DNA from: Blastomonas sp.
GTDB lineage: Bacteria > Pseudomonadota > Alphaproteobacteria > Sphingomonadales > Sphingomonadaceae
Assembly: GCF_046294995.1 (NCBI RefSeq)
Contig: NZ_JBKBOG010000001.1
Coordinates: 740,582 to 804,581 of the forward strand
Reading direction: 5' to 3'
DNA length: 64,000 nt
Each line of letters begins with the position of its first letter. Position 1 is the first letter of the stretch. The notes beneath the pieces were generated by a model, which was not told where the DNA came from, searched no databases, and saw only the letters and a program-made list of their open reading frames with translations. A program made the position numbers and the translations under genes. This document shows positions 27,783 through 45,803 of the stretch, piece after piece.

Positions 27783-27797
27783 TGGCGGAGCGGGTGG
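27783..27797. repeat. Distal att site (displaced copy of the tRNA-Ser 3' end)
   Basis: 15/15 identity to 45713-45727. An exact 15-mer shared by chance within 64 kb is improbable, roughly 1e-4. Confidence 0.8.
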
Positions 27798-27951
27798 TTT
27801 TCCCAAGTTAACTATATGTATTTGATATAATATTCAAAATTAACCTGTGCCAATTTCAATTCCCACATGGGTTCCCTTGTGTCTTTCGCGTCTATTTCCG
27901 ACAATCGAAACTATGCCATTGTACGATATTACTGTCTATAGATTTCTGGCA
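27798..27951. repeat. Island-end module, copy X (homologous to 35631-35786)
   Basis: ttttcccaagttaactatatgtatttga.. aligns with tttttctcaagttaagtgtatgtatttga... Further shared blocks are cccaca and actatg.c..gcgatat.a.tgtctat..tt.c..gca. AT-rich. Confidence 0.65.
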
Positions 27952-28436
27952 TTATATATTCATGTCTCCCTCTCGACATAGCACTCCAATCCAGTAGGGT
28001 CTTTCGGTCCTATACAATATGAATGTGTGGCTCACGCCAAGGCGCGGCATGCGTTTGAACCGAAGACGAGTGGCCATTACGGCGCACTGCGGTATTCCTC
28101 CAGAGCCTTGCAGCCGCCACGTGGCCGGGTATTTCTGCCCCGCGTCAGCCCATGGCGCTTGATAGGTATGCGAGATTGAAAAAGCGGTGCTTGGGCCAGC
28201 TCTGAATTGAGCAGGGTCCTCAGAATTCACGCATCTCGCGACCGGCAGAATGGCTGAATTTAAGCTGTGAGTGCTCGTCATCAGCACTCCAAGCAAGCCG
28301 TTGGCGATAGTGAATTTGGCCGATCTATCGCGCGCTGGTATCTCGCTAAGCCCCTAATATGTCACCAAGAATGCTTCTCGCCAGGCTGCGAAGAAGGTTT
28401 GCATTTTTTTTTCAAAGCGTGTTGCGCCACCTCAAG

Positions 28437-28476
28437 AATCGTATACGATGACCATAACGTATACAAAATACGATTC
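28437..28476. promoter_or_regulatory. Candidate operator: repeated GTATAC palindromes upstream of a TonB receptor gene
   Basis: aatcGTATACgatg - accataac - GTATAC - aaaatacgatt, about 75-110 bp upstream of the ATG at 28550, in AT-rich DNA. Confidence 0.25.
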
Positions 28477-28549
28477 AGCAAGCAGGGAATGGAATGATGC
28501 TCACCGTGACGGATATCCGTCGCGATAAACTGATATAAGGGGTCACATC

Positions 28550-31453
28550 ATGTATAATGTTAGGAACGTACTTCTTGGCTCTGTGGCACTGCTCTCCCCG
28601 ATCTGCCTGCAATCTGCGCAAGCACAAAGCGTGCTGCCAAGTTCATCTGGACCTGAGGCTGCTGAAGAAATAATCGTTACTGGGTCGCGGATTGTTCGCA
28701 CGGGCGCAGATACCTCGACCCCAACTGTCATGCTTGATTCAGCTTCGGTCGAAGCGGCAGGGATAGTGAGCGCCGGCGATTTGCTTCGCCAGCTTCCAGC
28801 CTTGTCACCAGGTCTCTCGTCAGAAAGCTCTGGCGTGACGTTCAATGGCGCTGGTCTGGACCTGTTGGACCTACGCTCGCTGGGCACCAACCGGACTCTC
28901 GTACTGGTCAATGGGCGGCGCCAGGTGGGTTCCAATCCTAATACCACCGCGGTTGATATCAACACCATCCCAACCCCCATGATTGAGCGCGTAGAGGTCA
29001 TCACAGGTGGCGCATCAGCTGTCTACGGCGCCGACGCGGTCTCCGGCGTGGTAAATTTCATCCTCAAGCGAGATTTTGACGGTATTGAGTTGGGCGGCCA
29101 GCTTGGCACGTCTTCGCGCGGGGACGCGGACAGGTATTCGATCAATGCCACGGCGGGGGCCAACTTTGCTGATGGTCGCGGCAATATCACCGGGCACGTG
29201 GCTTATACTTCGGAAGGTGGGATTGGCTTTGATCAGCGCAAGCGGGCTATATCCGGCCTTAACTGGGTGCCCAATCCCGCAAACACCGGGCCCGCAGACG
29301 GGATCGATGATTTCGTCACCCTAGCAAATGTTCGGCAGCTGGGTGGTCAGCAGGAATCGATGTTCCTACTCAATCGCGGCGCTGGCACCGAAGCATTTGC
29401 GTTCAACGCCGATGGCTCGGTTCGCAGCTTCGGACTTGGACCGTCGGGTCTGATTGGCGGAGGCCAGATTACCGACGGTGGCGAGGCAGAACTGGGCTAC
29501 GACGCACAGTGCCCGCAAGCCAAATGCGCCCTCAAGATCCCTGTGGAACGCGTGCTGATCTCGCTGGCGGGTCATTACGAGGTCAATGAATCAGCAGAGC
29601 TGTATTTTGAAGGCCGCTTTGCAAACACCAAATCGTCATCGCGCTTTGGCTCGGTGTTCGAAATTCCGCCGACGACCAACCGGATCAGCATCGACAATCC
29701 TTTCGTCACGCCTTCTCTTCGTGCCCTGATGGTTCAGGCAAACGTCACCAGCATCGGCGTGCTGCGTTCGGATCAGGAACTGGGTCTTCGCGGCCAGGAT
29801 ACCAACCGTGACCTATATCAGCTCGTTGCCGGAACACGCGGCATGATCGGTTTTGGTGACCTGCGTTACGACGCGTCGGTGCAATACGGTTCAGTCAATT
29901 TCACCAACACACGCGTGAACGATGTCGACCAGGCCAAGTTCCTGAATGCGCTGGATGCGGTCCGCGATGCGAGTGGCGCGATCGTCTGCCGGTCGGATGT
30001 TGCTCGCTCGCAAGGCTGCGTACCGATCAACTTCCTGCAGACCGGGGCGGCGATCAGCCCTGCCGGGGTAAATTACATTCGTATCCCGTTCGCCACCGAA
30101 ACCGCGAGGTTGAACCAGTTGGTCGCGACAGCGAACATCACCGGATCGATCGGTGACTTCTGGGGCGCGGGCAATATTTCCTTCGCGGGCGGCATCGAAT
30201 ATCGCAAGGAAGAGAGCACCTATCTGACCTCACCCGTTGACCAGGCGGGGCAAGGATTCTTCTTTACCCGCCGACAGTCGACCGCAGGGCAGTTTGACGT
30301 GCTCGAGTTTTATGGCGAAGTCGTCGTCCCGCTGCTGACCGATCGTCCGTTCTTCGAACGACTGGAACTGGAAGGCGCTGTTCGCACGTCCGATTATTCG
30401 ACCTCGGGCCGCGTCACCAGCTGGAAAGTGGGCGGAACTTGGGCGCCGGTATCCGATATCAGGTTTCGCTCGGTCCTCGCCCGCGCCGTTCGTGCACCCA
30501 ATGTCGGCGAACTGTTTTCGCCGGGCAGTGAAGGCTTCATCACGGTCGATGATCCATGCGACGTTGATTTCATCAGTGGCGGCTCATCGTCGCGCCGAGC
30601 GAATTGCGCCGCTCTGGGCGTTCCTGCGAACTTCCTCTCCAACGCCCGCACGATCAACATCCGGACAGCGACAAGCGGCAATGCGCAGCTGGATGTCGAA
30701 ACCGCCGACACCCTGACGGTCGGTGCGGTCATTGCGCCGTCCTTCCTTCCGGGCTTCAGCGCCACTGTCGACTATTTCAAGATCAAGATCAGCAATGCGA
30801 TCAACGTGTTCGGTGCGCAGGACATCCTCAACAACTGCGTCGACCTGACATCGATCGGCAACGCCTTCTGCTCCTCGGTAACCCGTGCGGCAGATGGATC
30901 GATCAACCAGATCCGCCGGCAGAACATCAACGTATCGCGGCTCGACCGCGAGGGGATCGATCTTGAATTGCGCTACCGCCAATCGCTGGGTGATATGGGT
31001 TCGGTTAGCTTCAACTTCGTCGGGACCCATATGATGAAGGTGACCACGGTAATTGCACCGGGCACAATTACCGGCAGCAACGTCATTGACTTCAACGGCG
31101 AATATGGCTTCCCTGAGTGGAAGGGGCGTGCAAGCGCGACCTGGAACTTTCAGCCGTTCGACCTGACAGGTACGCTCACCTATTTCTCGTCGATGCAGCG
31201 CGATGTTCAGCCCGTCCAGCCGGAAGACAACCGGGCGACAACCAAAGCACCCGATTTCTTCCTCTTCAACATGCAGGCCGGATACGAACTCAGGGAGGGA
31301 ATGCGGTTCTTTGTCGGCATCGACAACCTGTTTGACCGCCAACCGCCGTATCTGCCCGAAACCCGCGCAGGCGGTGCTGGCAGCTTCACCGGGGTGGAAA
31401 TCTACCCCGTGACGGGTCAGTTCTTCTACACCGGGGTCAAGCTTCGCTTCTGA
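28550..31453 (+). CDS. TonB-dependent receptor
   Basis: Signal peptide ..ICLQSAQAQS, plug motifs (IIVTGSRI, LRSLGTNRTLVLVNGRR, IERVEVITGGASAVYGADAVSGVVNFI) and a C-terminal ..FYTGVKLRF. Confidence 0.92.
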   Translation: MYNVRNVLLGSVALLSPICLQSAQAQSVLPSSSGPEAAEEIIVTGSRIVRTGADTSTPTVMLDSASVEAAGIVSAGDLLRQLPALSPGLSSESSGVTFNGAGLDLLDLRSLGTNRTLVLVNGRRQVGSNPNTTAVDINTIPTPMIERVEVITGGASAVYGADAVSGVVNFILKRDFDGIELGGQLGTSSRGDADRYSINATAGANFADGRGNITGHVAYTSEGGIGFDQRKRAISGLNWVPNPANTGPADGIDDFVTLANVRQLGGQQESMFLLNRGAGTEAFAFNADGSVRSFGLGPSGLIGGGQITDGGEAELGYDAQCPQAKCALKIPVERVLISLAGHYEVNESAELYFEGRFANTKSSSRFGSVFEIPPTTNRISIDNPFVTPSLRALMVQANVTSIGVLRSDQELGLRGQDTNRDLYQLVAGTRGMIGFGDLRYDASVQYGSVNFTNTRVNDVDQAKFLNALDAVRDASGAIVCRSDVARSQGCVPINFLQTGAAISPAGVNYIRIPFATETARLNQLVATANITGSIGDFWGAGNISFAGGIEYRKEESTYLTSPVDQAGQGFFFTRRQSTAGQFDVLEFYGEVVVPLLTDRPFFERLELEGAVRTSDYSTSGRVTSWKVGGTWAPVSDIRFRSVLARAVRAPNVGELFSPGSEGFITVDDPCDVDFISGGSSSRRANCAALGVPANFLSNARTINIRTATSGNAQLDVETADTLTVGAVIAPSFLPGFSATVDYFKIKISNAINVFGAQDILNNCVDLTSIGNAFCSSVTRAADGSINQIRRQNINVSRLDREGIDLELRYRQSLGDMGSVSFNFVGTHMMKVTTVIAPGTITGSNVIDFNGEYGFPEWKGRASATWNFQPFDLTGTLTYFSSMQRDVQPVQPEDNRATTKAPDFFLFNMQAGYELREGMRFFVGIDNLFDRQPPYLPETRAGGAGSFTGVEIYPVTGQFFYTGVKLRF

Positions 31454-31528
31454 AGACGCCGCGCAATGCCGGTCTGCGGTGCAGGCCGGCATCTGTCTGC
31501 CTGTATCGATGCATTGAGGCTGATTGCC

Positions 31529-33676
31529 ATGAACATGAACTTGCTGATGCACACGGTCGCGATCGCTGGCCTTGCCGCATATGGTGCCCTGATCATACCT
31601 GCTGCCGCACAGTCGGCCGCTGTTGGCGAGGTCCACGGACCCGCGTATCTCGACGACAGTTACGGCAAAAAGGCTCTCGATTGGGTAAAACGAGAGCATG
31701 GCGCCACGCTGAAAACCCTTCAGGCCGATCCGGCATTCGACGGCTTTCGACAGGAAGCTGCTGAAGTGCTGACCGCTCCTGACCGTCAGGAAGGCTTGCG
31801 GATGACACCCGGCTTCATGACACAATACTGGCAGGGCCGGGAATCCCCAATGGGCGTTTGGCGGCGCAGTCCGCAGGCAGCCTGGCTTGCAGGTACGCCC
31901 GAATGGCAAACGCTAATCGATTTCGACGCACTGGGACAAAAGGAAGGCCGCCGGTGGATTTTTGGCGGCGCAAGCTGCCGCACCAACGGTCGCTGCCTCG
32001 TCCAGCTCTCTGACAATGGCAAAGATGCCGCCGAAATCCGCGAGTTCGATCTTACCACCACCAGATTTGTGGAGAATGGCTTCAAGCTCCCCGTAGGCAA
32101 GCATCGCTTGTGGTGGTATGACGACGACACTGTGTTGGTTGCGCCTGTCCTCGATCGGTCGAGCCTCAATGCTTCGCTGTTTCCCAAAACCTTGCGGGTC
32201 TGGAAGCGCGGCCAGCCGATCGCGCAGACCACGCCGATATTCAGTATCAGCGATCATGACGCATCTCTTTCCGCGACCCTGATTGGCGCCGCCGGATCGG
32301 CTAAGTTCGTCGCGGTGCGCGGCATCGATTTCGAACGCCAGGAATTCAGGCTGATGGACCTTGCCGGCGCATCCACCAGATTGCCGCTTCCTGAGCTTGC
32401 CGACAGCTATGGCGTCCATGATGGCAGGCTGTTGCTGCGCCCCGAGGCGGACTGGACGCCACTGCGGGGTGGTCAGACGTTTGCTGCCGGAAGCCTAGTC
32501 GGTATCGACCTTGCCGCGTTGATGGAGCGTGCTGAAATCGCGGTGCCGACGCTACTTTATACGCCATCGGGCGATGACGCCGTGCGCGGCGTGGTTACCG
32601 TTGGAGACAGGCTGTTCGTCGAACTGCTGCACGATGGATATAGCCGCATCGAGGAACTGGCGAGTACAGGCGATACCGGTTTGCGCCCGCGTTTGCTGCC
32701 CCTCCCGGATGACAGGTTCATCACGGTCCTTGGTACTGCAAACGGCAAGATACTCGTCCAGGAACAGTCGCCGCTGACGCCCGGCACGATCAGTCTGGTC
32801 GATCCCGATACGGGTGCGCAGCAGCAGATCTATCAGCGCGCAGATGCATTCGATTCGCGCAATCTCGTCACCACCCGTCATCATGCTGTCAGCGCTGACG
32901 GCACGCGCATTAGCTACACCGTGATGCACAAAAGCGATCTGACGTTCGACGGCAGCCATCCGACGCTTGTCTATGGCTATGGCGGCTATGATGTTGCGGT
33001 AACCCCGCGCTACGAGCCGATTTTCGGAAAGCTGTGGCTCGAAAAAGGCGGCGTCTACATCCACGCCAACCTGCGCGGAGGGGGCGAACATGGACCAGCA
33101 TGGCACCGCGCCACGATGCGCGAGGGCCACCCGCTGGCCTTTGATGACATGGAAGCGGTGCTGCGCGACGTTCAGCGCCGCAAGATCAGCTCGCCCGAGC
33201 ACACCGGTATCATTGGCCGCTCGAACGGCGGACTGCTGGTCGCAGCCGTCATGCAACGCCAGCCCGATTTGATGAACGCGGTTGTCGTCGGCGGGCCGCT
33301 GATCGACATGCTCAATTTCCACCAACTGCCGCCTGGCGGCTCGTGGCTTGCCGAATATGGCGACCCCGACATAGCCGAAGATCGCGCATTCCTGGGCGCA
33401 TATTCACCGATGCAGACGATCGCTGGATCGCAGACGCGCTATCCCGTTCCGCTGATCATCACCGCTACCGACGACGATCGTGTCCTTCCCGGCCACGCTC
33501 GGCGCTATGCGGACATGCTTCGTCAGAAGGGTCATGCCTCGTTATATTTCGAGGACGACCAAGGTGGACACTATTGGGAGCTTGCCGGCGGCCCGGCACC
33601 CGGGGACTGGAGGCGCAGGTCGGTCGCGCGGGCCGCCGAGTTTACATACCTGTGGCAACAGCTGCGAAAGAAGTGA
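31529..33676 (+). CDS. Prolyl oligopeptidase family (S9A-like) serine peptidase, secreted
   Basis: Signal peptide MNMNLLMHTVAIAGLAAYGALIIPAAAQS, propeller-like N-terminal region, C-terminal YGYGGYDV, ANLRGGGEHGPAWH and nucleophile GRSNGGLL motifs. Confidence 0.85.
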   Translation: MNMNLLMHTVAIAGLAAYGALIIPAAAQSAAVGEVHGPAYLDDSYGKKALDWVKREHGATLKTLQADPAFDGFRQEAAEVLTAPDRQEGLRMTPGFMTQYWQGRESPMGVWRRSPQAAWLAGTPEWQTLIDFDALGQKEGRRWIFGGASCRTNGRCLVQLSDNGKDAAEIREFDLTTTRFVENGFKLPVGKHRLWWYDDDTVLVAPVLDRSSLNASLFPKTLRVWKRGQPIAQTTPIFSISDHDASLSATLIGAAGSAKFVAVRGIDFERQEFRLMDLAGASTRLPLPELADSYGVHDGRLLLRPEADWTPLRGGQTFAAGSLVGIDLAALMERAEIAVPTLLYTPSGDDAVRGVVTVGDRLFVELLHDGYSRIEELASTGDTGLRPRLLPLPDDRFITVLGTANGKILVQEQSPLTPGTISLVDPDTGAQQQIYQRADAFDSRNLVTTRHHAVSADGTRISYTVMHKSDLTFDGSHPTLVYGYGGYDVAVTPRYEPIFGKLWLEKGGVYIHANLRGGGEHGPAWHRATMREGHPLAFDDMEAVLRDVQRRKISSPEHTGIIGRSNGGLLVAAVMQRQPDLMNAVVVGGPLIDMLNFHQLPPGGSWLAEYGDPDIAEDRAFLGAYSPMQTIAGSQTRYPVPLIITATDDDRVLPGHARRYADMLRQKGHASLYFEDDQGGHYWELAGGPAPGDWRRRSVARAAEFTYLWQQLRKK

Positions 33677-33769
33677 ATGTCACTTGGGCCGCGTTTGCGG
33701 CCCAAGTGTGGCTGGTGCATGCTGTCCTAGACGACAAGTGGCTTGCCGATCACCTGCTGTCCGGCAAAT

Positions 33770-35404
33770 TCATTCGACAATTGCCAGTGGCTGCGCGGGA
33801 TCGGCTAATGCATTAGCATGCGGCCGGTAGGCAGGCGCGACCCGAGCGCCAGCCGCCTGTTCAAATGCATAGCCCGCCTTGATCACGTCATGATCCGCCC
33901 ATTGTTTGCCGATGAATGACAGCCCCACCGGAAGCCCTGACACGGCGCCCATCGGCACGGTAATATGCGGATATCCCGCTACGGCAGCCATTTGGCTCTG
34001 ACTGGGCGGGCCAAAATTGTCGCCGTTGACAAGATCGGACAACCAGGCCGGGCCGTTGCTGGGACCGATCAGAAACCTCACATCGTGCTGCTTCATCAAG
34101 CGATCGATGCCCTTTTCCCCGGCCAGTTTTCGCGACTTGGCAAGCGCCTCGATATACTCAGGATCATCAAGACCCTTTTGGCTTTCGGCGATCTCGAACT
34201 GATCCTGGTCGAACCATGCCAGCTCGGTGGCGGCCTGGGACTTGTTGAAGGCAATCAGGTCGGCCAGTGTTCGGCTGGACACCCCTGCAGGGGTTGTCGC
34301 CAGATAACCGTTCATGTCCGCCTTGAGCTCGGTCATCAGCACCTTGCGCTCGGCCTCGCGCAATTCCTCCAAGCCGGTTCGGCTGTCTGCGATCTCGACC
34401 AGCACTGCTCCGAGAGCCGACAAATGGCCTAACGCGTTTGCAAACGCGGCCTTGACGCCTGCGTTGCCACCCGTGCGATCGGCCAGCACCCCGATCCTTA
34501 CGCCACGCAGATAATCGCGCGACAGATTCTTGGCATAATCGGTGCGCCGGGAATCGGCCTGCTGAGTTGCCGGATCCGCAGGGTCGCTGCCGGCCAGCAC
34601 TGTTAGCGTGATCGCCGCATCCATAACGCTGCGCGCCATCGGTCCTGCGGTATCCTGACTGTGGCTGATGGGGATGATATGCGTGCGCGAAACCAAGCCG
34701 ACGGTGGGCTTGAATCCTACTAGGCCGTTCATCGATGCGGGGCAGGTGATCGATCCATCGGTCTCGGTACCGATGGTGATCGCAGCCAAGCTTGCAGCAG
34801 CCGCCGCACCACTTCCCGATGAGGATCCGCACGCGTTGCGATCCAAGGCGTAAGGGTTCTTCACCAGGCCCCCGACGCTCGACCATCCGCTGGTCGAGCT
34901 GGTTGACCTAATGTTGGCCCATTGGGAGAGGTTGGTCTTGCCCAGAATGATGGCACCTGCAGCCTTGAGCCGCGCGACCAAAGGTGCGTCGCGGTCGGTG
35001 ATGTTGGCCGATAGCGCATTAGAACCAGCGGTGGTTGGCACAGGCCCTGCTGCCTCGATGTTATCCTTGATCAGCACGGGAATACCGTGGAGAGGACCGC
35101 GAAGTTTGCCCGCCTTGCGCTCTGCGTCCCTCAGACGCGCTTCGCTCATCGCATCGGGCATGACGGCGATGACGCTATTAAGACTTGGCCCTTGGCGATC
35201 GATCTTGCGAATCCGATCCATATATTCGCGCACGAGATCAACACTGCCGACGCTGCCCGAATCCATCATTCGGCCTAGGTCAGAGATCGATTGTTCCTCG
35301 ACCGAAACCGCACGCGCGGCCGGTTCTGGCGTCTGGCTAACTGCCGGAGCAGCGCAAGCCGTTAAAAGCGTCAAAACAGCTAAGCGCGAGGAGGATTTTT
35401 GCAT
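33770..35404 (-). CDS. Amidase (amidase-signature family), secreted
   Basis: Signal peptide, then GPLHGIPVLIKDNI and the Gly/Ser-rich AS block ACGSSSGSGAAAAASLAAITIGTETDGSITCPAS. Confidence 0.9.
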   Translation of the reverse strand: MQKSSSRLAVLTLLTACAAPAVSQTPEPAARAVSVEEQSISDLGRMMDSGSVGSVDLVREYMDRIRKIDRQGPSLNSVIAVMPDAMSEARLRDAERKAGKLRGPLHGIPVLIKDNIEAAGPVPTTAGSNALSANITDRDAPLVARLKAAGAIILGKTNLSQWANIRSTSSTSGWSSVGGLVKNPYALDRNACGSSSGSGAAAAASLAAITIGTETDGSITCPASMNGLVGFKPTVGLVSRTHIIPISHSQDTAGPMARSVMDAAITLTVLAGSDPADPATQQADSRRTDYAKNLSRDYLRGVRIGVLADRTGGNAGVKAAFANALGHLSALGAVLVEIADSRTGLEELREAERKVLMTELKADMNGYLATTPAGVSSRTLADLIAFNKSQAATELAWFDQDQFEIAESQKGLDDPEYIEALAKSRKLAGEKGIDRLMKQHDVRFLIGPSNGPAWLSDLVNGDNFGPPSQSQMAAVAGYPHITVPMGAVSGLPVGLSFIGKQWADHDVIKAGYAFEQAAGARVAPAYRPHANALADPAQPLAIVE

Positions 35405-35623
35405 AAAGTATACGTAACTGACCGGGGAGGGCGTGGCAACCTGCCCAACGCAGATAGTGATTCAATCAAGATGCGGGGTCTATCTGTAGCCAATCCAGCG
35501 CTGAGGTTTTAAGTAGCGGTATGTGGCGATGCGAGGAGGCCGCCGAAAAATTTCGTCCGCGCATGAATTCATGTGTAAATCTTGCCGCTGCGAGATAAAT
35601 TAATTCCCAGTAAGTTTTCTATT

Positions 35624-35786
35624 GCGGGTGTTTTTCTCAAGTTAAGTGTATGTATTTGAAAACATTTTTTTAATACAGGCCCGCAAAAATTAGTCCCACA
35701 GTACGTACCCCAAGTGGAATACACGCCATCTAAACCGTTCCTAGACTATGACAAACTGCGATATGATTGTCTATTATTTTCCAGCA
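35624..35786. repeat. Degenerate internal att remnant (gcgggtg) plus island-end module, copy Y
   Basis: gcgggtg matches 7 nt of the att core. The following ~155 bp is homologous to 27798-27951, about two-thirds identity by eye and about 25/29 over the first block. Confidence 0.6.
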
Positions 35787-35989
35787 CGGCCTGAATGGTC
35801 TGCGTGAGATTGACGCCCAGATCTATCGGGTCAGGGCAGCTCGCACGAAAGGACGTCCCGCCCAATTACGGTCGGGTATTTTGGTAGGGCCGTTGGCAAT
35901 CGCAGTGTTATATCGGGAATAGGTTACGAGCGCCTCGCTGGTGACCCGGCATCCAAGAAACGAATTCGTCTGGGGCGTTTAAGGCATCC

Positions 35990-37001: not shown

Positions 37002-38982
37002 CAGGATTTGCCATCATGTCTAGCAATGGCATATCAGATAAAACCTTTCCGCTTCGACGAGCTTTAGGTGGTTCAAGGCGTTCAATTATTCCGGCTTCTG
37101 CGAGCCAATCTTTTAACTTATCAACGGAAAGATACATTGGTTCTTTTGTCCGCTGATACGGAATCCGGTACATCGGGCAATATAAAGGATGTAAATAGAA
37201 CTTATAACGCCGTTTCCGGTCTTTGTTCCGTGTTGCATGCTCCACCATGACAAGGTTGCCATAGTCCACCGCTTCAATCAAAAAATTAAAAATCTCAGGG
37301 TTTGATCTGAGTTCTTCAATGCTCAGCGATATACCATTATGGCCAGGATTACTCATTTTTAGGTCGCCGTACAAAGCCGTGCTAAACTTCTCGCCTAGCG
37401 TTTGGATAAGCTTGTACCTGTCATCACTCCTCCCGTAATCCGAGGGTATACGCTCGAGCCAAGTACGAGCAGCCTGAAACACCCCAATGGTCTGAATGCC
37501 CGCATTGATTGGCAATTCAGGCTGGCGATCGCTTCGCGACGACGCCTGGGTTGCATATTCCCAAATATACTGACAGAGACTAAGAAAAAGTAAGATGTTG
37601 CCGCCGCTCAATCCTAGTAAATTTTCTTCACCGCTGTAAATTGCTCGTTGCTTTTTTGTACCACCAATTTGAAGCAGGCAAAGTTCTACGCGCTCTTTGC
37701 GCCAATATTGCTTTGATTTTTTTTGCCATGGCAGGTCAGTAGATTCTGCTTCCCAGCCCTTCTGGCGGTACCAAACTTCACCCAGCTTCGCCGAGAGGGG
37801 GTCGGTCGCCGCCAGTTCGCGCAATTGCTGCGTGATCTCTGCGGGCCAATCTGGATCAATGCGAATTGCTTCTGAAGGTGTGTCTCCTGCGAGCTGAATG
37901 GCTTCGTCCTTCGGGGCAGGAGATCGTCCCAGAGCATCTGCAATCCTAACTGCTTTGGCACGTGCGCTGCCTGGGCTTGCGGAATGGCGCAGACGCCTGA
38001 GAAACACGTCGTTGGCAAATTCAGGGAACACGCTGGTTCCTCGCATCTCCTGCGTTCGTAAGCGCGAGTCTAGCTCCACTAATTTATAATCGCGGTCTTG
38101 TTCGAGGTGGCCATTTGAACCAAACACTTTGAGATGATTTCGCCAGGCATATCCCCGTGTTCCGATTCTATAAGAGAGCGTCGGATCACGACTGATAATC
38201 TTGTTTATAACACTTCTATAATCAGCTTCGGCCCCATTACTTCTGATGTTGGCTAGCTCTTCGTACTGATCGATCAAAACATAAAATTCAATGTCTTTTG
38301 GAACGACGCCGCTTCTTTTTAATTCGGTAACTATCACCTTCATCGGTTCGCCAGCAGATGTTTTGCTCACGGATACGGCAGGGTCTAGCGTAGTGTCATT
38401 TCCATTCATGAAGCGTCGATACAATGCAAGTCGCTTGCGTAATCGGCTTTCAAGGTCATCGATATCTTCTGCGCCCTGCAGGTACCCTTCCCAAACATCG
38501 CTATTGGCGGTGCTATTTACAAAACGGCGCAGTGGGTCTCGGTCAAATTTAAGACCTAGTTGGGCAGTCAGTGAAGAGTTATCGCTCAATATTTTGACTG
38601 ACTTCAAAATGTCTAAGGCTACGACGTAGTTAAAGAAGTCACCGAACATCAATTCTTGTGCACTGTCTCCCTGTTCGGCTCTGCGATTTCCAAACTCATT
38701 ACAGCGAGCTGTATTAATATTTATCCCAGCCCCAATAAACCTAGAGCTTTCTTCTGGGATAGGGAAAGGTTCGCCAATATCGCTGTATGCAACTCGAACT
38801 TCGGGCTGGAGTAATTTGAACAACATACTCTTACCGCTACCCTGCACTCCCGAAAGAATCACATGGCCAGGTTGAAACAATGGCATCGCGTGGGGAACCA
38901 GTTTGTGGCTAAAAATTTCTACAAACTCATCAGGATCTACTTTCTCCCCGACGTAAAGCTGCTGGAATGGATTGCGCGTCAT
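36994..38982 (-). CDS. Large P-loop NTPase (AAA/ORC-Cdc6- or STAND-like) with a basic C-terminal region, third gene of the MTase operon
   Basis: Walker A ILSGVQGSGKSMLFKLL. Candidate Walker B FYVLIDQYEEL. The start MTRNPFQQLYVGEK lies 2 nt after the upstream stop. The C-terminal KDRKRRYKFYLHPLYCPMYRIPYQRTKEP looks like a winged-helix strand-turn, which is inference. Confidence 0.75.
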   Translation of the reverse strand: MTRNPFQQLYVGEKVDPDEFVEIFSHKLVPHAMPLFQPGHVILSGVQGSGKSMLFKLLQPEVRVAYSDIGEPFPIPEESSRFIGAGININTARCNEFGNRRAEQGDSAQELMFGDFFNYVVALDILKSVKILSDNSSLTAQLGLKFDRDPLRRFVNSTANSDVWEGYLQGAEDIDDLESRLRKRLALYRRFMNGNDTTLDPAVSVSKTSAGEPMKVIVTELKRSGVVPKDIEFYVLIDQYEELANIRSNGAEADYRSVINKIISRDPTLSYRIGTRGYAWRNHLKVFGSNGHLEQDRDYKLVELDSRLRTQEMRGTSVFPEFANDVFLRRLRHSASPGSARAKAVRIADALGRSPAPKDEAIQLAGDTPSEAIRIDPDWPAEITQQLRELAATDPLSAKLGEVWYRQKGWEAESTDLPWQKKSKQYWRKERVELCLLQIGGTKKQRAIYSGEENLLGLSGGNILLFLSLCQYIWEYATQASSRSDRQPELPINAGIQTIGVFQAARTWLERIPSDYGRSDDRYKLIQTLGEKFSTALYGDLKMSNPGHNGISLSIEELRSNPEIFNFLIEAVDYGNLVMVEHATRNKDRKRRYKFYLHPLYCPMYRIPYQRTKEPMYLSVDKLKDWLAEAGIIERLEPPKARRSGKVLSDMPLLDMMANPDA

Positions 38983-38984
38983 GC

Positions 38985-39935
38985 TCAGCTTCTCCGAATG
39001 CGCGAAAACAGTGGAGACCATTGGGGGCCATGGTGGTGAATGATCGGTAAGGTGTTGTCCGGACAATTCGAATATAGGGCAACTAGTGCACCCGTCGCCT
39101 CATATCCGTAGGGATGCTGTGCCCAGATTCCCATTCGTGTCCCCAATCTTGAAATTAGCTCTCTCACTTTAGGAAAAATATTTGGTTCGTTTGCCTGTGG
39201 GGTTGCCCCTAAGAATAGTTCTCCGTGCAATATCAAGGCAGGTGAAAATGTAACATTTGGGCAATCTGAGGCCAGGGCTTTGCCGGTATTTAGTCCTTCC
39301 GGACAGCATACTAAAGGGAGTACCAAGATCGGGGTATTTGGAAGGCATGTTGCTGCCCAGTGCACTGCTTTAGCCATTTGATTGCCAGTTCCAACAAAAT
39401 CCTCCAGCAAGACAAGTCGTTCTATTTTCTGATTTATGAGATATGACCTGATGGCGAGTGGATCACCAAAGAGAGATAGAGATCGCCAATCTGGTCTATT
39501 GTCATGCCCAGAAAGTTGGTTAAGTTTAAGAAATGAATTGATACGCATGCTGTCTGTAATTGGACAAAACCACGTACGGTACATAGCTTGATTTACTAGA
39601 CTTGAGAGATTCGGCGCTTGGATGTCGATTTTTGCGTGATCAATAACCCATCGAGTTGCTTGACCGCCGAAGGCAGCTCGACATAACGAATCGAATTGCT
39701 GCTTTCCGATGAAAAATAGGTGTCGTAAAAGTCGAAAGAGTGTCTTTTGATCTTCAGTGCTATCTATATTGTTTAGCCATTCAACTAAACGGTCATCGAA
39801 TGCTTCGTAGCGATTGGGCTCATACTCATTAAAGAGTTCACTTTGAAGCCAAAGCAAATGGTCGCGCAGGGCGATTAAATCGTCGCTATCTGCGTCAAAC
39901 AACCATGGATTCACAATATTGAACAAGGCGCTCAT
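38985..39935 (-). CDS. Phosphoribosyltransferase-like protein, second gene of the MTase operon
   Basis: ERLVLLEDFVGTGNQ fits the PRPP-binding loop pattern of type I PRTases (four hydrophobic residues, two acidic residues, xxTG). It is preceded by an unassigned, helix-rich N-terminal region of about 190 aa. The ATG is 1 nt after the MTase stop. Confidence 0.6.
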   Translation of the reverse strand: MSALFNIVNPWLFDADSDDLIALRDHLLWLQSELFNEYEPNRYEAFDDRLVEWLNNIDSTEDQKTLFRLLRHLFFIGKQQFDSLCRAAFGGQATRWVIDHAKIDIQAPNLSSLVNQAMYRTWFCPITDSMRINSFLKLNQLSGHDNRPDWRSLSLFGDPLAIRSYLINQKIERLVLLEDFVGTGNQMAKAVHWAATCLPNTPILVLPLVCCPEGLNTGKALASDCPNVTFSPALILHGELFLGATPQANEPNIFPKVRELISRLGTRMGIWAQHPYGYEATGALVALYSNCPDNTLPIIHHHGPQWSPLFSRIRRS

Positions 39936-39936
39936 A

Positions 39937-41331
39937 TTAGGCTTTCAAAATCGCTTCTCGCACAAAGTTTGCAAGAATGGCAGCCATTGGAGGAGGGACG
40001 GCATTCCCAATTTGCGTGAATGTATCGGATTTCGATCCGGCAAAGCGAAATGAATCCGGGAATCCCTGTATCCGCGCAGCTTCCCTTGGTGTCATGCCCC
40101 GATTGTCAGATGGGTGGAGAAAAAGGTCTGGTCGGCCAAATCGTGTATCCACTGTAGGTGAGGGCGCATCCCACTCTAGTCGGCGATAACGACCGTTATA
40201 TGTTTGTCGTAGCTCCAGAAAGTCACCTGAGATCCGGATGTACCCCGCACTTTCGAGGAGGGGCAACTCTTGAATTATGGCGTTGCCAAATTCGGAAACT
40301 AGCCGATTGATGTGGACAGGATCCCCATCTCCATGTCGCCGCACGCGCTCCCTGCGACGGAGCCTTGTTATTGAAACTAGGATGAGCTTTTGAAGTTCGG
40401 TTGTTGCGCCGTAAACCTCGGGAATGTCCCATGTTGCGATCGTGCGCTCGCTGATCCTTACATTGCTGACGCGCTGGCCAGCGCCAATTTGCTGGGCAAT
40501 AAGCCAGTCGCGCGTCCCTTCCCGAGGCCATTCTATATCTTCGTCTTGGGTAAGGTCAGTGAGCGCTTCGCGGACTGACAACGATTGCTGCCGGGGGATT
40601 TCGATGCGAATAGAATCGCTACCGAGCCAGCTAAGGAGAAAAAGCCTTTTTCGACGCTGTCCTAACCCACAGGCCTGCCCGTCGAGCAGCAGCCGGCGCA
40701 CATTGTAGCCAGCTGAACGGAGGCGGTCCTCCAGGCCTTCCCATAGGCGCAGGTGAGCGCCCGAGAGCGCAGCTGGGACGTTCTCAACAATGACCACACG
40801 AGGTCTCGACGCCACCGCTATATCTGCCACTCGCATCAGTAATGCGTTTCGTGGATCGGCAACGTTACGTTTTCCCGAGGTGGAAAAGCCTTGGCATGGC
40901 GCACCAGCGAGAAGGATTGTCGGCATACTGTTATGGGGCTTTAAGCGACTAAGATCGGTCCGAAATGCCCGGCCCGGCAGGTTTTGCACGTACGTGGCGA
41001 GCGACTTTCGATCAATGTCGTACGCTGAGACAGGAAATATCCCTTGCTGCAGAAATCCTAGGTCGAGACCGCCGCATCCTGAAAAAAGACTCGTGGCATG
41101 CCAGCCACAAGCCTGTCCTGTAGGCAACTCAAGCTTGGCGTAAGCGGGAGCTTGCCCTATTGCGTCGTTGTCCGGTCGCTCCGCGAGCGGCAGGCGTGCT
41201 GCATCAGATCGAGCCAGGCTGGCGTCAATCGCTTGTCTTGTTTCGAATCTAGTGGGCTCGATTTTTTCCTGAACCAAGGTAGAATGTCTTGTGATGTTTT
41301 CTCGCCCCAATTGCCCGGCTCTGGATGCCAT
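39937..41331 (-). CDS. dcm: DNA (cytosine-5)-methyltransferase
   Basis: Motif I LFSGCGGLDLGF, motif IV GAPCQGFS, motif VI ENVP, motif VIII QRRKRLFLL, motif X GNAVPPPMA. About 90 aa of N-terminal extension. The ATG at 41331 overlaps the divergent thyX 5' end. Confidence 0.92.
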   Translation of the reverse strand: MASRAGQLGRENITRHSTLVQEKIEPTRFETRQAIDASLARSDAARLPLAERPDNDAIGQAPAYAKLELPTGQACGWHATSLFSGCGGLDLGFLQQGIFPVSAYDIDRKSLATYVQNLPGRAFRTDLSRLKPHNSMPTILLAGAPCQGFSTSGKRNVADPRNALLMRVADIAVASRPRVVIVENVPAALSGAHLRLWEGLEDRLRSAGYNVRRLLLDGQACGLGQRRKRLFLLSWLGSDSIRIEIPRQQSLSVREALTDLTQDEDIEWPREGTRDWLIAQQIGAGQRVSNVRISERTIATWDIPEVYGATTELQKLILVSITRLRRRERVRRHGDGDPVHINRLVSEFGNAIIQELPLLESAGYIRISGDFLELRQTYNGRYRRLEWDAPSPTVDTRFGRPDLFLHPSDNRGMTPREAARIQGFPDSFRFAGSKSDTFTQIGNAVPPPMAAILANFVREAILKA

Positions 41332-42172
41332 CCTAGGGCAAGAATTCCCTATTTTGAACCACGGATTTATCCGGGTTGTGGACTACATGGGTGGAGATGA
41401 CGCTGTCGTCCAGGCAGCTCGTGTTTCGTACGGTGCAGGCACGAAAACGGTCAGAGACGATAGGGCGTTGATCAGGTACCTTTTGAGCCACAGTCATACG
41501 ACTCCATTTGAGATGGCTGAGATTAAACTACACGTTAAAATGCCAATTTTTGTGGCTAGGCAGTGGATTCGGCATCGAACCGCGTCAGTGAATGAGTATT
41601 CAGCTCGCTATTCAATCCTAGACAAAGAGTTCTACTCACCTAGCGCCGAAGCAATTGCGGCTCAAAGCGATTCTAATCGGCAAGGTCGCGGTAAACCTTT
41701 AGAACTACGCGAACAGAATGATGTAAACGAGACAATTACAGCTATTTCCAATGCATCATATGACGCATATGTTGCCTTACTGAACGAGAATGACCAAGGC
41801 GAGCAATTAAATCCTGATCGTCTCGGTTTGGCTCGGGAACTTGCGCGCTCAGTTTTGCCGGTGGGGTTCTATACTCAATGGTACTGGAAAACTGACCTGC
41901 ATAACCTTCTAAGATTTCTCGAGTTGCGCACTGATCCGCATGCTCAGTGGGAAATTCGGCAGTATGCCCTTAAAATTCTCGACATTGTTAAGGTTTGGGC
42001 TCCACTAACTTACGAAGCGTTCATCGATTTTCGATCTGGGCGGACAGAGTTGTCAGCTGCTGCAACCAATGTGGTTCAGCGATGGCTGGCAGGCGAAGCT
42101 GTTTCGCAGGAAGACTCAGGGCTAAGTAAGCGAGAATGGAACGACCTTCAAAATTCATTGAAGCCGAAATAG
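41291..42172 (+). CDS. thyX: FAD-dependent thymidylate synthase
   Basis: ThyX signature RHRTASVNEYSARYS (RHRxxSxxxxSxR) plus HGFIRVVDYMGGD..VQAARVSYG and HTTPFEM. Low GC, like the neighbouring operon. GTG at 41291 or ATG at 41294. Confidence 0.92.
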   Translation: MMFSRPNCPALDAILGQEFPILNHGFIRVVDYMGGDDAVVQAARVSYGAGTKTVRDDRALIRYLLSHSHTTPFEMAEIKLHVKMPIFVARQWIRHRTASVNEYSARYSILDKEFYSPSAEAIAAQSDSNRQGRGKPLELREQNDVNETITAISNASYDAYVALLNENDQGEQLNPDRLGLARELARSVLPVGFYTQWYWKTDLHNLLRFLELRTDPHAQWEIRQYALKILDIVKVWAPLTYEAFIDFRSGRTELSAAATNVVQRWLAGEAVSQEDSGLSKREWNDLQNSLKPK

Positions 42173-42294
42173 GCTAGGTTCGGTTAGTATAGGTTTCCTG
42201 AATACGAGACATTCAGCAATCCTAGGCGCTTGGTTTTAGTCACCAGTTTCAAGTCGTCCACGGTCTAGGCTGCGTCTTATCGCACACGATTTGG

Positions 42295-42468
42295 TCAGTG
42301 GTATTGCTGATTGTGGACTCGCTTCCTTTCGATCAAGTTTCGAAGACTGTCGGTTAACACCAGCGTCGCAGCCCCGATTTTGACGACCTCGACCTCGCCC
42401 CGCGCGATCAGCAAGTACAGGGTGCTACGACTGATGCCGGTATACCGGCACGCATCGGGAACCCGCAT
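42295..42468 (-). CDS. AlpA/excisionase-type helix-turn-helix protein
   Basis: MRVPDACRYTGISRSTLYLLIARGEVEVVKIG fits the small phage/island Xis-AlpA HTH pattern. The upstream Met at 42522 is also possible. Confidence 0.6.
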   Translation of the reverse strand: MRVPDACRYTGISRSTLYLLIARGEVEVVKIGAATLVLTDSLRNLIERKRVHNQQYH

Positions 42469-42869
42469 ACTGATCGGCTCAATAGACAACGGCGACGAAG
42501 GTGGGAGGGGCATTCCAGGCATATCGGCACCAATCGTTCAAGAACCGGGATACAGCATGGACTGTAAGCAGCGGCCATCTGACTGCGGAAATTATCCACT
42601 TTCGGTGCACGACATACCACATGACATTTCTACCCCATCTTACTCGTGTGTGCGATCACGGCCCGGCATCCAGTCAAGCCTTCGCAGGCCTCGCGAACTC
42701 AATTTTGGGCAGCGCTGACCCTACTTCACGACTTTGCTTTGGCCAATCGGTCGGAGGCATTTTGCTCGCCGAAAGGGGTAACATGGGCACTGAGAAGCCT
42801 CAAATTCAACGCTTCCGGTCCCCGTTTCCGTCCGCCATTTTCATGTCCGACGCGAGTGCTATGCGCAGC

Positions 42870-42956
42870 CTCGAAAAGTGGCAGAAAACCGCCACTTTGG
42901 AAATGCGAGGCAGCGCGCGCTGCCGGATAGCACTCTCGAAAAGTGGCAGAAAACCG
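42870..42956 (+). repeat. Two perfect 22-bp direct repeats (ctcgaaaagtggcagaaaaccg), iteron-like
   Basis: Copies at 42870-42891 and 42935-42956. Degenerate TGGCAG(A/C)AAA cores lie at about 43050 and 43127. The GC palindrome ggcagcgcgcgctgcc sits between the copies. Confidence 0.7.
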
Positions 42957-43185
42957 TTATTCACGCGTGCGTGAGGTGTGTATCCAAATTACGGGTCCGA
43001 TGCGAAGCATCGCGGCCCCTGTTACCCCGCCGGATTTGATGCCGGTGAGATGGCAGAAAATGGGTGCCGGTGGGGCTGGCGAAAGGACAGTTCGAACGGC
43101 CATCAAGGGGTCAGGTTTGGGGATTGATGGCAGCAAAGATGCAGCCAGTGGCCGTCGCCCGCGTTCGGCTCCCGAATCTGCGCAC

Positions 43186-44154
43186 TCAACCCGCCGCGAG
43201 AGCCTTCACTTCAAGGTCGGCGATCCGCTCCGAACAGATAGCGTGAACAGCCCGTCCAAGCTCCTCTACGCACCCGCCAAGCCACAGCAGCTCCTCTTCG
43301 GTAATCCGATAGTGCTTCGAGTACCGAGCCTTCACATAGGCCTCTTTCAGCTTTTCAAAGCGGGCCCGATCAATCCGACTGTCACGAGGCCAGGCATCGA
43401 CCAAGCGCATGTCGATCCGCTCGGCCTGGGTGCGCAGGAAGCCGAGATTGTGCACGTGGGGCGAATAGAAGGTGCAGACCAGAAGCACGCAATGGTACAT
43501 GCGTTCTGCAGACTGATGGAGGTCGAAGACAGCCTTCTTCAGCTTGCCTCGGTTCTTTGCGTCATTGAAGCCGTCGAAAAAATCTGAAGCGCTCGGCATC
43601 CACTCGTCAAAATACTCACGCGCCATTGCCAGCGCCTGCTCCGGCGTTTTGGGCTTAGGCGTATGAAGTACCCTCTCATCCGCTTCGTGCAGTGCGATGC
43701 CGTCCTTGGCCACGTCCATAAAAAAGTATCGCCCATGGGCGAGGCCGTCATTCACCTCCTGTAACGTGTGAACGATGAAGTTTACCGGCGTGTGCAGCGT
43801 CCGGTCGATAGCCAGCTCACGGATAAGCCGGTCTTCGAGCTTAAGCCAGTAATCGACGCGCTCGGTGAGGCGCTTGTCGTTGACGATGATCAGTAGATCG
43901 AAATCGGAGCGATAGCCTTTTGCCGTGTGCGGCTCATCGACCCAGCCGCCACGGGCATAGCTGCCATAGAGGATCAACTTCTCGATCCGGCCCTTCTTCT
44001 TCCACTGGTGGGTGGCGAGCGCCAGGGCATCCTCGAACTCCTCGAAGATGATCTGCTTCACGCGATCAAGCTCGCGCTGCTTGTTGGCAGGAAGATGGTC
44101 AAGATCGGTTCGCATGGGCAGGGGCACCCTGTAGGCATGGGTTACGATTGGCAA
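43186..44154 (-). CDS. Nucleotidyltransferase-HEPN fusion protein
   Basis: N-terminal minimal NTase motif LILYGSYARGG..(18)..SDFDLLIIV. C-terminal helical domain with AYVKARYSKHY, resembling the Y(I/V)xxRY signature of classical HEPN domains. Confidence 0.75.
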   Translation of the reverse strand: MPIVTHAYRVPLPMRTDLDHLPANKQRELDRVKQIIFEEFEDALALATHQWKKKGRIEKLILYGSYARGGWVDEPHTAKGYRSDFDLLIIVNDKRLTERVDYWLKLEDRLIRELAIDRTLHTPVNFIVHTLQEVNDGLAHGRYFFMDVAKDGIALHEADERVLHTPKPKTPEQALAMAREYFDEWMPSASDFFDGFNDAKNRGKLKKAVFDLHQSAERMYHCVLLVCTFYSPHVHNLGFLRTQAERIDMRLVDAWPRDSRIDRARFEKLKEAYVKARYSKHYRITEEELLWLGGCVEELGRAVHAICSERIADLEVKALAAG

Positions 44155-44167
44155 GGTCCAAGCCGCA

Positions 44168-44416
44168 TCACCAGCGCCAGAACTGCCACCAGTCTGGCGG
44201 CTTCTCTGTCGGCATCTGCATCAGCACGAACAGGGCATTGGCAAAATGCTGCTCGACCTGTTGGGGGGTTATGCCGTGTTTGTTTGCAAGCTGGCGGTAG
44301 CTCATCTCATCGACGCGGATGGCAAGGAAGATTTCCCGGTCGAGCGGCTCCATCCGCTCGACCGCTCTCTCGAACTTGCACAAGCGCCTGCGCTCTGTGC
44401 GCGACAGGCAAGGCAC
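44168..44416 (-). CDS. Small sigma-70 region-4-like HTH protein
   Basis: LDREIFLAIRVDEMSYRQLANKHGITPQQVEQHFANAL resembles ECF sigma region 4.2. GTG start 1 nt after the integrase stop. Confidence 0.5.
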   Translation of the reverse strand: MPCLSRTERRRLCKFERAVERMEPLDREIFLAIRVDEMSYRQLANKHGITPQQVEQHFANALFVLMQMPTEKPPDWWQFWRW

Positions 44417-44417
44417 C

Positions 44418-45587
44418 TCAACTCTCCTTGTCGCAATATGCGGCCCATTCGGCCATCATGACCCGGCGCTTTTCCAACAGATTGCCACGCCGGTAGGCCG
44501 CTTCGGTTTTGTTGGCGACCGTATGGGCCAGGGCTGCCTCTGCAACATCGCTGGGATGATTGGTCTCCTCGCTGACCCAATCCCGGAACGACGATCGGAA
44601 ACCGTGAGGTGTGAATGGCTGACCCATTTCCTTCATCAGCATCGACAATGTCATGTCTGATAGCGGCTTGTTGCTGCGAATTCCGGGAAACACATACTGG
44701 CAGTCGCGCAATCGCAATTGAGCGCAGCGGCGCAGGATACGCAGCGGACGTGGGGTCAGGGGTACAACATGCTCGCGGAATGCCTTCATACGCTCCTTAG
44801 GAAGCGTCCAGAGGGCTTCCTCCATATCAACCTCATCCCAGGTCATGCCGCGCACCTCGCCCGATCTTGCGGCGGTGTAGATCGCAAATTCCAGTGCAAG
44901 GCGGCTGAAGGATTCCCGCGCGCGCAACTTCAATATGAACTTCGACACTTTCTCGTATGGCATGGCCGGAAAATGCCCGTCCTTGCGTGGCTGGCGCGGC
45001 AGGCCTTTCGAAATTGCTCGCATGGGAGCCTCGGTCTCGCGGTAGCCAGACGCATAGGCCCAGTCGAGGACCGCTCCGATGCGCTGGCGGACCCGCCGCG
45101 CCGTTTCGGGCTTTGCCAGCCAGATTTCAGCGAGAACGTCGCGGATCATTGGGCCGGTGATCTTGTCGACCTTGTGCTTCCCGATGGATGGAAAGACATA
45201 CATTTCGAGCGTGCGCATCCACTGCGCGTGGTGCTTGCCATTGCGCCAGGTCTTCGAGTGAATGTCGAAGACCTTCTGGGCCGCGTCCTTGAAGGTCGGC
45301 ACCGCTTCGAGCTTGCGCCGCTCGAACTGAGGGTCGAGGCCCATTTCCATCTGGCTGCGGACCTCACGTGCCCGCTCGCGAGCCTCAGCAAGGCTTACCT
45401 TGCTACAGCTGCCCAAGCCGAAATCGCGGCGGTGGCCCTGTTTCTGAACCCGGCAAACCCAGCTGCTACTCCCTCCCGGCCTTTCGTAGCGAAAGAGGCC
45501 GTCGCCAAAACTCACCCGGCGGGTGCTCTGGGCCTTGGTCTCCGGATCGGAATTGGTAGTCGTTTTCATAGAGGTGATCATGATCAT
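44418..45587 (-). CDS. int: Tyrosine recombinase, P4-like integrase
   Basis: DUF4102-like N-terminus (GLFRYERPGGSSSWVCRV), catalytic region ..YTAARSGEV.., HGFRSSFRDW, ..LAH.. and AYRRG (R..HxxR..Y). Possible starts at 45587, 45581 or 45569. The rest of the 615-aa ORF reads through the tRNA and is discarded. Confidence 0.9.
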   Translation of the reverse strand: MIMITSMKTTTNSDPETKAQSTRRVSFGDGLFRYERPGGSSSWVCRVQKQGHRRDFGLGSCSKVSLAEARERAREVRSQMEMGLDPQFERRKLEAVPTFKDAAQKVFDIHSKTWRNGKHHAQWMRTLEMYVFPSIGKHKVDKITGPMIRDVLAEIWLAKPETARRVRQRIGAVLDWAYASGYRETEAPMRAISKGLPRQPRKDGHFPAMPYEKVSKFILKLRARESFSRLALEFAIYTAARSGEVRGMTWDEVDMEEALWTLPKERMKAFREHVVPLTPRPLRILRRCAQLRLRDCQYVFPGIRSNKPLSDMTLSMLMKEMGQPFTPHGFRSSFRDWVSEETNHPSDVAEAALAHTVANKTEAAYRRGNLLEKRRVMMAEWAAYCDKES

Positions 45588-45712
45588 CTGTCCCACATTT
45601 GCAAAAATGTCGGCTTGGACGACGTGGGACACACAGGGATCCGAATCACCAGCGCACCCCGCAGGGGAGCTGGACTTTCGGAGTTGATCAGGGATCGTGT
45701 GGGATTCGAATG

Positions 45713-45803
45713 TGGCGGAGCGGGTGGGATTCGAACCCACGATAGGCTTTTGACCTATACACACTTTCCAGGCGTGCGCCTTCGACCACTCGGCCACCGC
45801 TCC
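45713..45803 (-). tRNA. tRNA-Ser (anticodon GGA)
   Basis: The reverse complement is ggagcggtggccgagtggtcgaaggcgcacgcctGGAaagtgtgtataggtcaaaagcctatcgtgggttcgaatcccacccgctccgcca. It has a long variable arm, a 7-bp acceptor stem and an encoded CCA. Confidence 0.95.

Follow-up and report, generated by a model that had tools for sequence, protein, structure and literature searches.

A probable composite genomic island at the tRNA-Ser(GGA) gene of a Blastomonas strain

In a genome of Blastomonas sp. (RefSeq assembly GCF_046294995.1), a number of unusual genes are located between a TonB-dependent receptor gene and a gene for tRNA-Ser(GGA). We analyzed the surrounding 64,000-nucleotide stretch of contig NZ_JBKBOG010000001.1 (positions 740,582 to 804,581 of the forward strand; referred to in the following as the window, with coordinates counted from its first letter), asking whether these genes arrived as one mobile unit and, if so, how this unit is built. 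A first-pass annotation, made from the letters alone, had proposed a genomic island of about 18 kb, integrated at the tRNA gene, as the single mobile context of all of them. We conclude, with a probability of about 0.88, that positions 27783-45727 represent an integrated genomic island consisting of a backbone, a variable slot and a second module beyond an internal attachment arm, which was fused from tandem elements and has spread as a unit.

Attachment sites, empty site and integration genes

The tRNA-Ser(GGA) gene (45713-45803, minus strand) is identified by ARAGORN as well as by Rfam (59 bits) and is intact despite the island at its 3' end. The plus-strand sequence TGGCGGAGCGGGTGG is the reverse complement of its last 15 nucleotides (nt), CCA included, and has exactly two copies in the window. 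One of them, at 45713-45727, is the proximal attachment (att) core (attL), while the other, at 27783-27797 on the plus strand, is an exact 15/15 repeat and constitutes the distal core (attR), a displaced copy of the tRNA end. None of 100 dinucleotide-preserving shuffles contained an exact copy of the 15-mer (0 expected by chance), and the window holds no further site with two or fewer mismatches. Across 81 related sphingomonad loci it is found almost only as the end of a tRNA-Ser gene and is thus not a frequent word. The exact repeat that the first-pass annotation had derived from the tRNA 3' end is therefore upheld by the tRNA call and by the shuffles, and the search for additional copies that it had suggested returned none in the window. 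At E≤0.1, the tRNA was the only Rfam match between 26.5 and 46.5 kb. The flanks have a G+C content (GC) of 0.61-0.69. Within the island, it is 0.48 over 27.8-28.6 kb, rises to 0.58-0.64 over 28.6-35.4 kb and falls to 0.42-0.58 over 35.4-42.2 kb, in agreement with the two low-GC stretches reported earlier for 27.8-28.5 and 35.6-42.3 kb.

As the GTDB species representatives are too distant to provide an empty site, public sequencing runs were searched in the form of assembled Logan contigs. In seven runs (X1-X7) the left flank and the island are both present, and in five others (X8-X12) the flank occurs without 35.7-45.6 kb. A contig of 1,583 nt in run X9, with a depth of 9.5 equal to that of the flank, joins position 27782 directly to position 45713, breaking exactly at the distal core. 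This junction omits exactly 17,930 bp, the 15 nt fit both sides, and the depth in X9 is zero over 28.1-42.7 kb. The flanks of the contig differ from the window by about 1-3%, corresponding to a strain that is roughly 97% identical, and the junction is the unoccupied attB site in this close relative. The same empty junction is found in X7 as a loose end, in which position 27797 is followed by GATTCGAACCCACGATA, and here the flank is two to four times deeper than the island. In X6, the left junction is present in a strain sharing many single-nucleotide polymorphisms of the flank with the empty-site strains. Taken together, the evidence from these three runs indicates that the island is polymorphic among near-identical strains (at least 97% identity) and that all 17.93 kb form a single insertion with the 15-mer at either end. 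Relatives with an empty tRNA-Ser site, which the earlier annotation had named as its principal check, thus exist in the predicted form.

Near the tRNA end of the island lies a full-length tyrosine integrase gene (44418-45587, minus strand) of P4/CP4-57-like architecture, which matches the Arm-DNA-bind_3, Phage_int_M and Phage_integrase profiles and whose translation contains the expected catalytic motifs ARSGE, HGFRSSFR, LAH and AAY. At the inner edge of the conserved backbone lies a gene for an excisionase-family (AlpA/Xis-like) helix-turn-helix (HTH) protein (42295-42522, minus strand; HTH_17 and TIGR01764). The assignments made for both genes from the sequence, a P4-type integrase just inside the tRNA junction and an Xis/AlpA-like gene starting at 42295, are matched by these profiles. 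The third backbone gene (43186-44154, minus strand) encodes a fused nucleotidyltransferase-HEPN (NTase-HEPN) protein with matches to Pfam Polbeta/NTP_transf_2 and HEPN. In related islands the amino acid (aa) identity is 81-98% for the NTase-HEPN protein and 84-90% for the excisionase-family protein.

Between the integrase gene and the tRNA, the proximal arm (P' arm; 45588-45712, minus strand) carries three GTGGGAY motifs and is conserved in all members of the island family described below, whichever tRNA-Ser they target. One of the motifs lies in AATCCCAC, which resembles a tRNA T-loop/stem and follows the CCA at a distance of 6 nt in every family member. The window contains ten GTGGGAY sites, four of them within 45590-45730 and one in the internal arm, and the outer (distal) arm, designated arm A, contains GTGGGAA. 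We infer from this distribution that the motifs are putative arm or core binding sites of the integrase. The T-loop-like 12-mer at 45700-45711 was also considered as a third, decayed tRNA end and was rejected on account of its constant distance from the CCA in every member, whichever the tRNA.

In the scheme that we propose, the element entered by site-specific recombination of its attP site with the terminal 15 nt of the tRNA-Ser(GGA) gene, in a reaction catalysed by the island's own tyrosine integrase. The new 3' end of the tRNA was thereby supplied by the island, and the 15 nt that had stood there came to lie at the island's far end. Excision would presumably be carried out by the integrase together with the excisionase-family HTH protein.

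The internal arm and its interpretation

The distal arm A (P arm; 27798-28000, plus strand) is AT-rich and features the motifs TATGTATTTGA and TCCCACA. A repeat search revealed that 27790-27834 matches 35624-35668 at 82% over 45 nt, with weaker similarity going on for about 170 nt. The segment 35624-35800 (plus strand) appears to be an internal, fossil att site, in which a truncated core, GCGGGTG (35624-35630), is followed by a second distal arm, arm B. The local alignment of the two arms scores 52 compared to 17.4 ± 2.6 in shuffles, about 13 standard deviations above them; apart from arm A itself, no other segment of the 64 kb matches arm A as well as arm B does, and the exact TATGTATTTGA is found in these two arms and at no other place. 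Both arms align with the distal arms of two sister islands (L095 and L103), with which they have the blocks TCAAATACATA, GTGTGGGA and ATGGCATAG in common, including GTGGGA and CATAG blocks, and both are thus genuine distal arms of the family. A BLAST search with either distal arm against the first 109 loci collected gave no match, most related islands extending past the 10-kb flank that was fetched. Arm B abuts just seven of the 15 core nucleotides, in the correct register, and beyond these the sequence is unrelated.

From its sequence, the internal arm is best explained as a scar left by the tandem integration of two related elements. According to the order of events that we favor, the older element would then have lost its integrase end through a deletion, either integrase-mediated or illegitimate, ending inside the core, and the fused island would since have spread as one unit by means of its two outer att sites. 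Tandem arrays do occur in this family, since an attP-like junction, consisting of an AT-rich arm, a 22-nt 3' fragment of tRNA-Ser(GCT), a proximal arm and an integrase gene, lies without a tRNA inside a 229-kb contig (L092:9780-10005). The segment to the left of the internal arm is also found in other settings. A 51.6-kb contig of run X39 (L110) carries 35653 to 27781 at 88-92% nucleotide identity, including the same 15-mer, and continues into another flank. In runs X46, X33 and X32, a single contig extends over 27789-35710 and resumes at 42358 after about 4 kb of unlike sequence; the backbone is present in these runs, and the depth is zero over 36.1-42.0 kb. The internal arm is thereby conserved in at least three island lineages, and because this module and the arm occur together elsewhere, the fusion would appear to be old and to have travelled as a unit. 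The first-pass view of an island at tRNA-Ser(GGA) accordingly holds for the 17.93 kb as one insertion but not for its being a simple unit, as the internal arm with its truncated core and the separate low-GC cargo indicate.

Among the other explanations, the one that survives best, although we regard it as improbable, takes the island as a single simple element and the similarity at 35624-35668 as a chance or functionally irrelevant repeat. It would readily explain why intact 15-mers stand only at the two outer sites and why the empty site removes the entire 17,930 bp in one piece, but it leaves the rank and score of arm B as a match of arm A, the restriction of TATGTATTTGA to the two arms, the family blocks in arm B and the seven core nucleotides in register to coincidence. 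Considerably less probable is a mobile element limited to the integrase-proximal 10 kb (35.6-45.7 kb), with 27.8-35.6 kb as ancestral chromosome. The GC of 28.6-35.4 kb (about 0.59-0.63) is indeed close to the core value, homologues of the amidase gene in this segment (74-77%) have an ordinary chromosomal context in Blastomonas, and the internal arm is located at 35.6 kb. However, 27798-35600 is missing from the empty-site contig as well, the internal core is cut to 7 nt, and the module together with arm A and the 15-mer borders on a different flank in L110/X39 and in X46. The weakest candidate, a prophage or phage satellite (P4-like or PICI-like), would fit the P4-type integrase architecture and the AlpA/excisionase-like gene but is contradicted by the relatives, which carry a conjugative relaxase instead, and by the open reading frames (ORFs) of at least 100 aa, among which Pfam, PADLOC and NCBIfam scans found no capsid or other structural, terminase, portal, primase/replicase, packaging or packaging-redirection genes.

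Four points weigh against the preferred reading of a composite, mobile island. The empty site of X9 could be ancestral rather than the product of excision. A back-joined circular (attP) junction was sought in the high-depth runs X1, X4, X6 and X7 and was not found in their contigs, which drop rare forms. To the left of 35624 there is no remnant of a proximal arm or of an integrase, leaving the arm and the half core as the evidence for a tandem integration followed by deletion. Finally, a relaxase, an origin of transfer (oriT) and type IV secretion genes could not be recognized in the window copy, whose mobility at present is thus only putative.

A family of islands at tRNA-Ser genes

Relatives at 97, 89, 84-86 and 76% identity were obtained by scanning metagenomes with the integrase. 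Common to them is the backbone of integrase, fused NTase-HEPN and excisionase-like genes (42.3-45.7 kb in the window), and this backbone was found adjoining tRNA-Ser genes of four anticodons: GGA (the window, L082, L083 and L086), GCT (L085 and L088), CGA (L087) and TGA (L089-L091, L095 and L103). The last 15 nt vary between family members, each matching its own target tRNA. In L095, an exact 15-nt repeat, positioned in the same register, marks both ends of a 9.7-kb island. Over 2.6 kb the backbone of L082 is 94% identical to that of the window at the nucleotide level, whereas the peptidyl-prolyl isomerase (PPIase) of its host is only 62% identical, which argues for a recent transfer between genera.

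The chromosomal site itself is well conserved. In 55 of 56 sphingomonad loci, tRNA-Ser(GGA) lies directly upstream of the same PPIase gene, and the closest species representative is Blastomonas natatoria with a PPIase about 72% identical. A search for exact copies of the window's PPIase protein gave a single contig of 1.2 kb. Synteny between the window and Blastomonas spans 45.7-51.3 kb and ends exactly at the tRNA. Some tyrosine integrase gene stands right beside tRNA-Ser(GGA) in about 10 of the 56 genome loci, which marks the site as an integration hotspot. The T-stem of the window tRNA (45724-45742) reads GGGTGGG...CCCACGA compared to GGGAGGG...CCCTCGA in the Blastomonas tRNA-Ser of L002 and L003, a compensatory pair, one half of which sits within the 15-nt core supplied by the island; islands in hosts of the other T-stem type (L083 and L086) carry the matching core variant. 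The contig of L003 (NZ_LSHP01000136.1) is labelled Acidovorax delafieldii CCH4-A2 and is collinear with the window and with Blastomonas, with identities of 71-73% for the PPIase and 82-90% for the neighbouring genes. To judge from this, the contig appears to come from a sphingomonad and to be either mislabelled or a contaminant.

Two further observations concern the backbone. In two Sphingopyxis genomes (L023:8340-9293 and L029:7185-8138), an NTase-HEPN gene (80-85% aa identity) adjoins tRNA-Ser(GGA) with no integrase detected, and these loci may be decayed island remnants. In runs X1, X4, X46 and X33 the depth of the backbone (42736-45391) exceeds that of the remaining island by a factor of 1.3-11, and the organism-labelled run X46 contains 5-8 distinct contigs over the NTase-HEPN gene. 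Depth and contig number together suggest that these samples or genomes contain multiple copies of the backbone, perhaps at more than one tRNA-Ser gene.

With regard to transfer, Pfam and NCBIfam scans of the island ORFs gave no relaxase domain, and none of the ORFs of at least 100 aa encodes a type IV secretion, mating-pair formation or coupling protein. An interpretation of the island as an integrative and conjugative element was rejected on these grounds. In L082, L083 and L092, whose backbones are the closest to that of the window, a gene for a 991-aa relaxase (MobA/MobL + AAA_30) stands between the NTase-HEPN gene and the excisionase-like gene, so that integrative mobilizable elements (IMEs) belong to the family. 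Any cell-to-cell transfer of the window copy, which has neither relaxase nor mating-pair genes, would need helper functions.

Within the backbone, a conserved non-coding block (42829-43100, minus strand) contains an invariant 26-nt hairpin (42993-43018; GGGCCGCGATGCTTCGCATCGGACCC) and two copies of TTTCTGCCACTTTTCGAG. It does not vary among islands with integrases of no more than 76-86% identity, and its conservation exceeds that of the surrounding coding sequence. The block occurs in the window, L084, L085, L089, L090, L095 and L103, which are exclusively relaxase-less variants of the backbone. It also includes a 65-bp tandem duplication at 42865-42956, the 27-nt cores of which are 93% alike; in other organisms, represented in runs X8 and X10, this sequence is present once (joint 42887/8 to 42962). 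Relaxase-less 'iOriT' islands are described as small and integrase-bearing, without mating-pair genes and with defence genes near a transfer-related region (Ares-Arroyo et al., bioRxiv 10.64898/2026.01.13.699239). In line with such islands, the block would be a candidate oriT or operator.

Comparison to known systems helps to define what is particular about the island. With tRNA islands that have P4/CP4-57-type integrases, for example those of enterobacteria, it shares the insertion at a tRNA 3' end, the tRNA-derived direct repeat, the tRNA-adjoining integrase with an N-terminal arm-binding domain, the excisionase-family gene, the atypical GC and the presence or absence at strain level. It differs from them in its sphingomonad host, the fused NTase-HEPN gene of the backbone and the two-arm composite structure, and its family in the use of four tRNA-Ser anticodons with a 15-nt core changed to match each. 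IMEs and 'iOriT' islands resemble it in having an integrase and no mating-pair genes, and its backbone relatives encode a relaxase; the window copy, in contrast to IMEs, has none, and the hairpin block is but a candidate for an oriT. Two homologous distal arms in direct orientation, as well as the attP-like junction in L092, are reminiscent of tandem island arrays at one tRNA att site. Unlike in those arrays, the inner junction of the window retains 7 of 15 core nucleotides and the older element is without its integrase end, which would indicate an array frozen into one unit that spread whole. The locus would in this way provide a clean natural example of tandem accretion frozen into one island, with empty and occupied alleles available in public data. 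The kind of element is known; new with respect to the first-pass account are its composite build, a cargo slot with lineage-specific content and its place in a family with four tRNA-Ser anticodons and relaxase-bearing relatives. Nothing relevant was found in the literature on such an island family in sphingomonads.

A broader proposal, which we make tentatively and consider doubtful in its entirety, is that the window is a member of an undescribed sphingomonad family specific to tRNA-Ser, which re-targets among all serine isoacceptor genes through changes of its 15-nt core while keeping its arm motifs including AATCCCAC. Such a family might exist in relaxase-bearing and relaxase-less (hairpin-block) versions and shuffle defence cargo between genera, comprising Cas9, type I restriction-modification and Dcm-PRTase-ORC/Cdc6-CARF-ThyX, with the cluster of the window possibly being a functional new DNA-modification or defence system.

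Cargo of the two modules

The module beyond the internal arm, at 28.5-35.4 kb, encodes three proteins. A TonB-dependent receptor (28550-31453, plus strand; Pfam Plug and TonB_dep_Rec_b-barrel), absent from the empty-site strain, is followed by a peptidase of the S9 prolyl-oligopeptidase family (31466-33676, plus strand; Pfam Peptidase_S9_N and Peptidase_S9) and an amidase (33770-35404, minus strand; Pfam Amidase and NCBIfam PRK08137 above the cut-off). Considering that the GC of this module is near that of the host and that the amidase homologues in Blastomonas have an unrelated, ordinary chromosomal context, the module may have been acquired from the chromosome of a sphingomonad.

Between the excisionase-like gene and arm B lies the low-GC cargo (35.7-42.3 kb). 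Four of its genes are on the minus strand: a CARF-like gene split into two ORFs (35990-37001), a gene for an ORC/Cdc6-like P-loop ATPase (36994-39066; Pfam PF24389, E=1e-53), one for a PRTase-CE phosphoribosyltransferase-like protein (38985-39935; Pfam PF24390, E=3e-31; PADLOC PRTase_III-A) and one for a DNA cytosine-5 methyltransferase, Dcm (39937-41331; Pfam DNA_methylase, TIGR00675, PADLOC MTase_II). The fifth, on the plus strand, encodes the flavin-dependent thymidylate synthase ThyX (41291-42172; Pfam Thy1; TIGR02170 equivalog with 199 bits compared to a cut-off of 88 bits). A single PADLOC model, PDLC01923, accounts for both CARF-like ORFs, which cover its positions 2-209 and 200-297, and what separates them is a frameshift near 36350-36385, in a tract of homopolymers (C8, C5 and T6). 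Contigs from independent runs and metagenomes are identical at this position, so the frameshift is real; judging by the tract, it would be one of three things, a true pseudogene, a phase-variable tract or a programmed shift.

In no run outside the window's own lineage (X1-X7) is the low-GC block present. The corresponding slot of the relatives is occupied by other genes, namely type I restriction (L089 and L090), a D12 methylase (L103), RHS (L092) and DUF4238/DUF7380 (L084), as well as a 1,051-aa Cas9 (L095:15265-18420; RuvC_III, HNH_4, Cas9_a), which is the cargo of the 9.7-kb sister island at tRNA-Ser(TGA). In relatives and window alike, the content of the slot between excisionase-like gene and distal arm recalls that of defence islands or variable cargo hotspots. 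The window cluster differs in three respects: it matches the MTase_II, PRTase_III-A and CARF6 models but makes up no complete PADLOC system, its CARF-like gene carries a frameshift, and thyX accompanies it. No relevant literature was found under the Pfam name 'PRTase-CE'. On the basis of these matches, the cluster is a candidate set of defence or DNA-modification genes in a swappable slot.

For every unusual gene between 27.8 and 45.7 kb, the mobile context is now established, and three layers with different histories can be told apart: a backbone common to several genera, a second module that other hosts carry at 88-92% identity, and a low-GC cargo limited to this lineage. Of the single mobile context proposed at the outset, the location of the unusual genes inside the island stands, but the low-GC block is separate, lineage-specific cargo in a variable slot. 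The Dcm/PRTase/ORC-Cdc6/CARF/ThyX cluster would accordingly be viewed as a recent, swappable insertion and not as part of the host or of the island core, and the main use of the island account lies in providing a frame for judging these cargo genes. Within the cluster, thyX (about 48% GC) is divergent from dcm, the longest ORFs of both genes overlap at their starts, and a thymidylate synthase carried by an island next to a cytosine methylase is an unusual arrangement.

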